A stretch of DNA of 17,376 bases, taken from the IMG/VR virus record IMGVR_UViG_2541047431_000017, one strand, 5' to 3'. Below the pieces are notes generated by a model. That model was not told the origin of the DNA and searched no databases. It saw nothing but the letters and a program-made list of their open reading frames with translations. A program made the translations under genes and the position numbers. This document shows, one piece after another, positions 1,792-2,803 of the stretch. Source of the DNA: a virus (taxonomy: Duplodnaviria > Heunggongvirae > Uroviricota > Caudoviricetes). The stretch's first letter is position 1; each line of letters begins with the position of its first letter.

Positions 1792-2803
1792 AAAGGTGAA
1801 AACCGGCAGTTCATCCAGTAAGTCAGTATTGACCTGGCTTGCTGATATGTGCGGTGCCGATTTGTGTGCATACCCGTCTGTATCTGCACTGGCAGAAGTA
1901 ACGGAACTGAACAAAAAGACTGTGCAGGACAGCTTACGACACCTGATGGAGATTGGGTTAATTGTTGATACCGGTGAGAGAAAAGGCAGAACAAAGCAAA
2001 TTGTGGTGTACCGACTTATCGGTGTAGAAGAAAGTGTTGCCGAGCCTGAATACACCCAAAAACGGGAGTCTTTAAAGGTGGGTAAAATTGGTGCTGTTAA
2101 TAAAAACAGTACCGAAAATGGTTATGTTTCAGCACAAAACAGACCCAAAAACAGAACTCTTAGCTGCATGGAAAATAACCAAAGACACCCAAATTTTCCA
2201 TCAAAGACACCCAAAAACGGATCACGGAACCCAAAGGAACCCAAAGATCTAAACCCCACACATAACGCACGCGAGAGTGCTCCGACCAGTGAGCAGGAAG
2301 TTTTGTCGTTACAGGCAGCCCCCCCTGTATTCCTGTATGGCCTGAGCAAACCCATCGGAAAATTCCCGATGAGCGATAGCTGGTATCCGTCACGGGATTT
2401 TCGACGACGGGCTGCGTTGTGGGGGATGGCTTTGCCGGAGACAGAATTTACACCTGCTGAACTTGCCGCCTTCCGGGACTACTGGGCAGCGGAGGGGAAA
2501 GTGTTTACGCAGATTCAGTGGGAGCAGAAATTCGCCCGTCACGTAAATCACGTCAGGGCGCAGGTTAAACCAGTCAGCAAAGGGGTAAACCATGCAGCAG
2601 CACCAGGTGGCACCGCATCACGGGCAGTTCAGGAAATTCGGGCAGCACGTGAGCAGTGGGAACGTGAAAACGGATTTATCAGCGACGGAAACGGCCTGGA
2701 AGCTGTGGGAACTCATGGGGGTGGTTTATTCGAACCGCTGGATCCAGAAGAACGGGGCCGCACCTTCGAAGCTCTGGATTGCACAGATTGGCGCGATGAC
2801 TGA
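1763..2803 (+). CDS. phage replication initiation protein (O-like): N-terminal wHTH, low-complexity linker, C-terminal DnaT-like region
   Basis: ATG at 1763 (MSIDALRWAKK...) follows an AGGGGGG SD-like motif; the ORF-track start at 1688 is less likely. Linker (NRPKNRTLSCMENNQRHPNFPSKTPKNGSRNPKEPKD) is encoded by iteron-like DNA repeats. Sits immediately upstream of a P-like gene. Confidence 0.55.
   Translation: MSIDALRWAKKVKTGSSSSKSVLTWLADMCGADLCAYPSVSALAEVTELNKKTVQDSLRHLMEIGLIVDTGERKGRTKQIVVYRLIGVEESVAEPEYTQKRESLKVGKIGAVNKNSTENGYVSAQNRPKNRTLSCMENNQRHPNFPSKTPKNGSRNPKEPKDLNPTHNARESAPTSEQEVLSLQAAPPVFLYGLSKPIGKFPMSDSWYPSRDFRRRAALWGMALPETEFTPAELAAFRDYWAAEGKVFTQIQWEQKFARHVNHVRAQVKPVSKGVNHAAAPGGTASRAVQEIRAAREQWERENGFISDGNGLEAVGTHGGGLFEPLDPEERGRTFEALDCTDWRDD
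2138..2260. repeat. iteron-like direct repeats ([A/G]ACCCAAA, at least 5 copies) inside the O-like gene; candidate replication origin
   Basis: Copies: gACCCAAAaacag (2138-), gacACCCAAAtttt (2181-), gacACCCAAAaacgg (2203-), ggaACCCAAAgg (2224-), ggaACCCAAAga (2235-). They lie in the linker-coding part of the initiator gene, as oriLambda does in gene O. Confidence 0.4.

Follow-up and report, generated by a model that had tools for sequence, protein, structure and literature searches.

In this paper we describe a cluster of short repeats inside the replication initiator gene of a lambdoid prophage. We consider it likely that these repeats are the iterons of the prophage's replication origin, placed in lambda style within the gene that codes for its initiator. 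The prophage DNA is IMG/VR record IMGVR_UViG_2541047431_000017, and the whole stretch of 17,376 bp that was analysed is called the window. An initial annotation of the window had pointed to ACCCAAA repeats in the initiator gene as a candidate origin. Our results show that the true repeat unit is an iteron of about 22 bp with the family consensus GAAACAGTCCCAAAAACGGGAC. The repeats are constrained at the level of the DNA, this constraint is specific to one gene family and one position within the gene, and the repeats are co-inherited with the winged-helix domain of the initiator. The candidate-origin interpretation is supported, with the unit and the coordinates corrected.

The repeat unit and its clustering

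The heptamer ACCCAAA is found in six copies in the window, all on the + strand and within 2054-2245, starting at 2054, 2143, 2187, 2209, 2229 and 2239. All but the first lie inside 2138-2260, where at least five copies of [A/G]ACCCAAA had been proposed. Five copies of the heptamer are indeed there, but the preceding purine is found in three copies only (2142, 2228 and 2238) and the remaining ones read CACCCAAA. The six copies span the three codon phases (ACC-CAA-A, A-CCC-AAA and AC-CCA-AA), and the repeats encode residues 95-161 of the initiator, inside its linker.

Counted over the whole window, ACCCAAA is unremarkable, with 6 copies observed against 2.95 expected and 18 of 200 shuffles reaching 6. 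Taken alone, whole-window counts of 7- and 8-mers are not significant; significance comes from the clustering and family-matrix tests. Dinucleotide shuffling of the window (n=500) gave a maximum of 2 copies per 200-bp stretch against the 6 observed. When only the A/C-rich region 2040-2260 was shuffled in the same way, the mean was 0.32 copies and the maximum 3. With the peptide kept and its synonymous codons resampled from those of the gene, the mean was 0.78 copies and the highest count 5. Neither of these two tests reached 6 copies (0/5000 each), and the clustering is not due to chance.

The full extent of the unit was defined with a 22-nt weight matrix, which was iteratively refined and built from relatives of the initiator gene without the window. 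These relatives are 80 loci from gamma-, beta- and alpha-proteobacterial genomes. The matrix holds 24 bits, and its consensus shows a partial dyad, GTCCC-N6-GGGAC, together with two nearly invariant upstream A's. A scan of the window finds four full sites (2047, 2103, 2136 and 2202), and the window has three half-sites in addition (Table 1). The first two full sites lie upstream of 2138, where the repeats had been thought to begin. Outside the array no + strand score exceeds 12.1 bits. The sole comparable match on the - strand (11.7 bits, 2130-2109) overlaps iteron 2 and reflects the dyad symmetry of that site. Four-hit arrays were found in 0/2000 local shuffles. None of the ACCCAAA copies at 2187, 2229 and 2239 reaches 6 bits when scored with the full matrix, which identifies them as half-sites.

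The left flank of iteron 2, AACAGT, is that of the family consensus, and an orthologous 'HTQKRE' copy of iteron 1 is retained in Klebsiella, Kluyvera and Edwardsiella relatives. The full sites fall at nt 285-461 of the initiator gene, between the parts encoding the DNA-binding and the partner-binding domains, and the same position is seen in the 80 relatives. The tandem half-sites at the end of the array are prone to slippage. In E. coli 2013C_3964 (locus L082, 1501-2531) one GGAACCCAAA unit is deleted, and the resulting frameshift in the initiator leaves an open reading frame (ORF) with the helix-turn-helix (HTH) part only and a pseudogene.

Constraint on the DNA rather than on the peptide

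The family comparison shows the core word to be largely confined to the initiator genes. We scanned 81 sequences, together about 0.5 Mb, in which the initiator genes make up 70 kb. The exact word CCCRAAAACGG is present in 103 copies inside the 80 initiator genes, on the coding strand only and at gene nt 260-650. Outside the initiator genes there are 4 copies on the + strand and 0 on the - strand, and three of these four fall in a tandem initiator paralog of Arsenophonus. The tandem paralogous initiator genes of Arsenophonus nasoniae (L063, 1696-2391 and 2965-3744) each have linker iterons of their own.

The 103 copies are distributed over the reading frames as 66/28/9. The linker peptides P[EK]NG and TQKR, both conserved in the relatives, are one DNA word read in two frames. 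P[KE]NG is always encoded CCC-RAA-AAC-GG in the relatives. Its proline codon is CCC in 69/69 motifs compared with 22% in the rest of these genes (P = 1e-43), its asparagine codon is AAC in 66/69 compared with 47% elsewhere (P = 2e-17), and its lysine codon is always AAA. The Acinetobacter clade has a variant, AACAGTCCCAACAATGG, repeated at 17- and 22-nt spacings, so that the copies cannot stay in frame and use all three frames. The use of three frames together with the fixed synonymous sites means that the repeats are not a coding by-product and that the constraint acts on the DNA. The low-complexity peptides PKNG, PENG, TENG and TQKR are thus translation shadows of a DNA motif. A linker conserved as protein but not as DNA in related phages would have spoken against the initial annotation; we find the repeats conserved beyond what the peptide requires. 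Codon identity is also higher inside the iterons (82%) than in the N-terminal domain (40%), a comparison to which we give little weight because it is partly circular, the sites having been picked by DNA match.

The initiator and the inheritance of its parts

The initiator matches PHROG 1032 'replication initiation protein' (8.5e-91). The repeats had been placed in a linker between two domains, and the AlphaFold2 model agrees with this. The N-terminal domain is modelled confidently with a helix-helix-helix-helix-strand-strand topology, and its top Foldseek matches are winged-helix regulators, in line with the fold that had been assumed for it. It is followed by a long linker predicted to be disordered and by a DnaT-like domain, modelled confidently over about residues 200-268, which makes the initiator a DnaT-domain protein (PF17948). 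All 80 aligned family members match HTH_36 at E <= 1e-3 (best 5e-14), and based on these family matches and on the winged-helix fold we count the window protein among the HTH_36 winged-helix initiators. By sequence the family is distinct from lambda O. The window protein has no match to Pfam Phage_rep_O (PF04492), for which lambda O scores 123 bits and P22 gp18 129 bits, and its matches to 'O-like' PHROGs are weak (1e-7 to 1e-12).

The HTH_36 N-terminus is the only domain common to all 80 relatives. Their C-terminal domains include DnaT (7), Phg_2220_C (4) and DnaA_N (2), with the rest having no assignment, and the downstream ORFs that were scanned (n=45) include 9 P-like proteins, 8 DnaB-like helicases and 2 IstB/DnaC-like proteins. 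The repeats travel with the winged-helix domain, whereas the C-terminal domains and partner genes vary. A mosaic junction in the window gene gives a view of this modularity. The ydaU gene of Rac-SA53 is 87-89% identical to the window gene 3' of the junction and unrelated 5' of it, with DNA and protein matches starting at query nt 481 and aa 161. The N-terminus of Rac-SA53 YdaU, joined at DLKELNPTH, is a different one and lacks repeats. Since the junction in the window gene directly follows the array, the winged helix and the repeats have been passed on together as a single module.

The number of sites per initiator gene is typically 3-7 in the family. In a complete epsilon15-like phage genome of 41 kb the initiator gene contains all six sites (19-27 bits), and scores elsewhere in this genome are at most 9.2 bits. 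The initiator and the P-like gene are its sole recognisable replication genes. Viable phage genomes of the family have no replication module besides this one.

In Acinetobacter (L013-L079, gene nt ~297-445) the variant core is CCCAACAAYGG, with spacings of 46/17/17/22/22 nt, and the recognition helix DRKTVLKII replaces KKTVQ.... The core variant (AACAA vs AAAAA) covaries with the recognition helix (TVLKII vs TVQ..), although this is confounded with phylogeny. The pairing may reflect a covariation of binding specificity.

A candidate origin and its alternatives

The array and its initiator probably work like lambda's origin, even though by sequence the initiator falls outside the O family. The initiator would be made from rightward early transcription, which, starting from the upstream control region, would also traverse the repeats. 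Its N-terminal winged helix would bind the four sites of about 22 bp, with the core [T/A]CCC-AAAAAC-GG[G]A and its partial dyad, probably as dimers, and the flanking half-sites might be bound as well. A complex similar to the lambda 'O-some' could be assembled on phased A-tracts. The DnaT-like C-terminal part would then recruit the P-like loader and host DnaB and perhaps hold single-stranded DNA, and nearby DNA would be opened after the loader has been recruited. Binding of the repeats by the N-terminal domain, which the initial annotation had also predicted, and origin activity of the array are both suggested by the co-inheritance and by the analogy with known systems, and we infer the recruitment of P and DnaB. 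A reason for finding the repeats in a disordered linker could be that such a linker tolerates codons imposed by the DNA.

The A-tracts in 2040-2260 are phased at 11 bp, ranking 2 among 858 scanning windows, and 0/1000 shuffles reach the observed value. We also considered a strict helical phasing of the sites themselves and dropped it given the irregular spacings in the family, whose modes are 17, 18, 24, 25, 33, 46 and 61 nt.

Several observations weigh against an active lambda-type origin in the window. A convincing AT-rich unwinding element is lacking. Within the gene, AT content is highest between iterons 1 and 2, where the GC content is 0.33-0.35 in 60-bp windows spanning 2060-2159. The 40-bp duplex free energy at 2070-2110 is -48.7 kcal/mol, only about 2 standard deviations (sd) from the mean for the window (-56.9, sd 4.2), and far less extreme than that of intergenic AT-rich tracts elsewhere in the window. 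The relatives show a mild AT excess (+0.14) at 15-45 bp past the last site, which is absent in the window. The spacing of the sites is irregular (56, 33 and 66 nt). The array also looks eroded, with only two perfect cores left, and iteron 3 has CAG, having lost a near-invariant G, where other E. coli alleles, those of the E2348/69 type among them, have CGG. Iteron 3 scores 20.0 bits in the window and in the many genomes of enterohaemorrhagic E. coli (EHEC) that share its allele, compared with 27.9 and 26.6 bits in two circular records described below (L086 at 6715 and L088 at 1768). Downstream of the P gene, at a distance of about 0.5 kb, lies an IS3-family element. On the protein side, the window initiator scores 20.9 bits for HTH_36 (PF13730), below the Pfam cut-off of 25 bits, and when its profile was compared with that of lambda O, the result (E 0.01, probability 4%) did not demonstrate homology.

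The lack of a clear AT-rich unwinding element beside the array raises the question whether the sites bind the initiator but serve control, such as autoregulation, titration or handcuffing, or incompatibility, with strand opening elsewhere in the prophage. Plasmid iterons are known to act in control as well as in initiation. We regard this as improbable, although it is the strongest of the alternatives. No second cluster of sites was found in the window or in the 41-kb phage genome, and the layout is that of lambda and P22, whose in-gene repeats are the origin.

Ranked behind it, and also improbable, is the possibility that an ancestral origin is now a dead relic in this prophage copy. The two perfect cores, the three copies that are half-sites, the CAG of iteron 3, the IS3-family insertion in the next gene past P and the slippage alleles with a frameshifted initiator in the population would all fit such decay. 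The eroded array and the IS3-family element do mean that the window copy may be inactive. However, neither the initiator nor the P reading frame is broken in the window, and many EHEC genomes carry the window allele with 100% identity. Furthermore, lambda needs just two iterons together with its AT-rich tract in vitro (PMC7466680).

Two further explanations are far less probable. One is that the repeats are an RNA-level motif, for example a slippery CCCAAAA at which frameshifting would produce a short N-terminal protein, or a recombination 'boundary' for module exchange. In its favour, every copy is on the coding strand and the mosaic junction adjoins the array, and an astrovirus frameshift model matches weakly (15 bits against a threshold of 70). 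But copies in all three frames allow no single frameshift logic, no Rfam family is found at threshold, the junction lies 3' of the array and not inside it, and both the partial dyad and the 22-bp extent, conserved in its flanks, are usual in sites bound by proteins. The least credible explanation is a coding by-product of a repeated linker peptide (P-K-N-G etc.) under selection as protein; the conserved P[EK]NG and TQKR peptides would agree with it, but it is refuted by the frame, codon and spacing tests above, the codon-resampled peptide never reproduces the repeats, and the linker is predicted to be disordered.

The family comparison allows a broader hypothesis, in which the winged helix together with the iterons in its gene would act as a portable origin cassette. 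In prophages of alpha-, beta- and gamma-proteobacteria the code, CCCRAAAACGG, would have stayed nearly the same, with repeated swaps of the C-terminal domain and of the helicase partner. In contrast, O/iteron pairs of the lambda type have diverged in specificity among lambdoid phages. We put this forward as a tentative idea, which is on balance doubtful. Up to four copies of the region are found per E. coli genome, which would make firing or titration between prophages possible. If the hypothesis were true, the initiator of one prophage could fire or titrate the origins of co-resident and even cryptic prophages, and EHEC prophages might cross-activate one another, over-replicate locally or be incompatible.

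Genomic setting

The window represents the early-right part of a lambdoid prophage and is 99.6% identical to the 'PPompW' prophages of Shiga-toxin-producing E. coli. The features discussed here are listed in Table 1. The helicase-loader partner is found directly 3' of the initiator gene, as expected for a lambda-type origin, and the start of the P-like gene overlaps the initiator stop codon (ATGACTGA). For the region, searches against Rfam (E <= 1) and a promoter and terminator scan gave sub-threshold matches or none.

Table 1. Coordinates of the repeat array, the initiator and the neighbouring genes in the window
Feature	Position	Strand	Description
Iteron 1, full site	2047..2068	+	TGAATACACCCAAAAACGGGAG; 23.2 bits; perfect ACCCAAAAACGG; frame Y-T-Q-K-R-E
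AT-rich stretch between iterons 1 and 2	2069..2102		Most AT-rich and least stable stretch of the gene; weak unwinding-element candidate
Iteron 2, variant full site	2103..2124	+	AAAACAGTACCGAAAATGGTTA; 18.7 bits; encodes S-T-E-N-G
Iteron 3	2136..2157	+	AAAACAGACCCAAAAACAGAAC; 20.0 bits; one mismatch to ACCCRAAAACGG
Half-site	2180..2193	+	CAAAGACACCCAAA; iteron left half, then TTTTCC replacing AACGG; direct-repeat family D2; holds ACCCAAA at 2187; third frame, H-P-N
Iteron 4, full site	2202..2223	+	CAAAGACACCCAAAAACGGATC; 21.4 bits; perfect ACCCAAAAACGG; encodes K-T-P-K-N-G
Half-sites, two tandem 10-bp units	2226..2245	+	GGAACCCAAA; repeat family D16
Mosaic junction	2243..2262	+	GATCTAAACCCCACACATAA; K-D-L-N-P-T-H; directly after the array
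Initiator gene	1763..2803	+	346 aa; 'replication protein'
Winged helix	1763-2035 (aa 1-91)	+	AlphaFold2, confident; predicted local distance difference test (pLDDT) 86
Disordered linker	2036-2347 (aa 92-195)	+	AlphaFold2, pLDDT <50
DnaT-like domain	2363-2563 (aa 201-267)	+	Pfam DnaT (PF17948), 9e-17, 61 bits vs cut-off 25
Lambda-P-like helicase-loader gene	2796..3257	+	Pfam Phage_lambda_P, 4e-16; PHROG 109 'P-like helicase loader', 1.8e-54
Upstream control region	545..1791		Repressor, Cro/YdaS-like and YdaT-like genes
Divergent repressor	545-952	-	Pfam HTH_3, P22_Cro and YdaT matches in 545-1791; PPompW annotation
Cro/YdaS-like gene	1029-1256	+	Pfam; PPompW annotation
YdaT-like gene	1240-1791	+	Pfam; PPompW annotation

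The first 538 bp of the initiator gene, its N-terminal part, are present in 908 of 5,426 complete E. coli genomes. Hosts of the module include O157:H7, O26, O111 and the enteropathogenic E. coli (EPEC) strain E2348/69, and it is also found in epsilon15-like phages.

Downstream, the IS3-family element (orfA 3735-4061, orfB 4058-4948) splits a DUF1627 gene (window 3444-5339) into an N-terminal part at 3444-3683 and a C-terminal part at 4914-5339. The other cargo of the window is typical of a lambdoid late-regulatory region and includes a Paa/AcfC-like adhesin (SBP_bac_11), DUF968, RusA and a Q-like antiterminator (DUF1133). Further lambdoid cargo consists of a DNA methylase, tRNA-Met, tRNA-Arg, a SASA-family esterase, a holin and a protein with a P22 Ant-like antirepressor domain. 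The cargo lies at 6199-6957, 8276-10233, 10823-11545, 11921-12153, 12620-14527, 14785-15180 and 16384-16953.

Two circular 'plasmid' records, L086 (NZ_CP148379.1, 8,461 bp) and L088 (NZ_CP148543.1, 15,643 bp), consist of the prophage segment only. The segment starts at the repressor, includes cro, ydaT, the initiator and P, and recalls the lambda-dv plasmids. For the first strain (NZ_CP148379.1) the chromosome is not among the records holding the segment. The junction of the circular record shows a 1-nt microhomology and, nearby, an imperfect 16-nt direct repeat. These records could be mini-replicons or assembly artefacts, and we did not count them as evidence.

Significance and comparison with known systems

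Our analysis gives a concrete candidate origin for a module that is found in about 1/6 of complete E. coli genomes. It also suggests a rule for finding origins, which is to look for a cluster of CCCRAAAACGG-type 22-mers just past the region coding for the winged helix. The rule applies to hundreds of HTH_36-type initiators that are now annotated only as 'helix-turn-helix domain-containing protein', and the odd PKNG, PENG and TQKR peptides in these proteins find an explanation in the DNA sites. The array is a further example of a known design, which leaves the concepts of phage replication unchanged and would not surprise a specialist. In the literature that we searched there was no description of the motif, of a family-wide consensus, of the three-frame encoding or of an origin for the family; papers on the origins of pIGRK and of phage-inducible chromosomal islands (PICI) concern unrelated origins.

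The iterons of theta plasmids (R6K pi, pPS10 RepA and RK2 TrfA) are similar in being direct repeats of about 17-22 bp in a single orientation that are recognised by a winged-helix initiator. However, plasmid iterons are intergenic and regular (~22 bp) and the present ones are intragenic and irregular, so that the array does not belong to that class. The initiator has a single winged-helix domain in place of the WH1-WH2 pair. Theta plasmids also have flanking DnaA boxes and an AT-rich element, whereas none were seen here, DnaA boxes not having been specifically searched for.

The likeness to lambda and P22 is closer, and the lambda analogy drawn in the initial annotation holds in the layout. 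In all three the repeats lie in the initiator's own gene, right after the N-terminal DNA-binding domain. Lambda has four annotated iterons at nt 349-433 of the O gene (L084, 735-819), followed by an AT-rich tract, and the annotated P22 origin covers nt 353-497 of gene 18, compared with nt 285-461 here. As in lambda, the repeat region encodes a flexible linker, a P-type loader is the next gene, and the initiator is a two-part module with recombination junctions between its DNA-binding and partner-binding parts. The sites also share a theme of TCCC...GGGA dyads centred on an A-tract (lambda iteron ATCCCTCAAAACGAGGGA, family site GTCCCAAAAACGGGAC), and the family dyad GTCCC-N6-GGGAC is reminiscent of the lambda TCCCTC-AAAAC-GAGGGA. 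There are clear differences as well. Lambda O and P22 gp18 belong to Phage_rep_O, which the window initiator does not, and the C-terminal domain is DnaT-like here and not lambda-O-like. The span from CCC to GGG is 12 nt compared with 15 nt in lambda, and a scan of lambda and P22 with the family matrix gave no matches. The sites are irregularly spread over about 180 bp, whereas the four of lambda are tightly packed, and no strong AT-rich tract adjoins the array.

A two-gene architecture like that of the prophage is found in the DopC/DopE pair, described by Brezellec et al. (2017) as a domesticated O-like/P-like pair of Cellvibrionales and Oceanospirillales (PMC5509034). DopC likewise has an HTH_36 N-terminus and a DnaT C-terminal motif, and its gene is followed by a lambda-P homologue (PMC5509034). 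The difference lies in the repeats, which the prophage gene has and dopC, by the authors' description, has not; dopC is reported without iteron-like repeats and its locus without an origin (PMC5509034). Because the repeats are present here and reported absent there, the prophage gene seems to represent the undomesticated state of the DopC/DopE pair, in which the gene still bears an origin.

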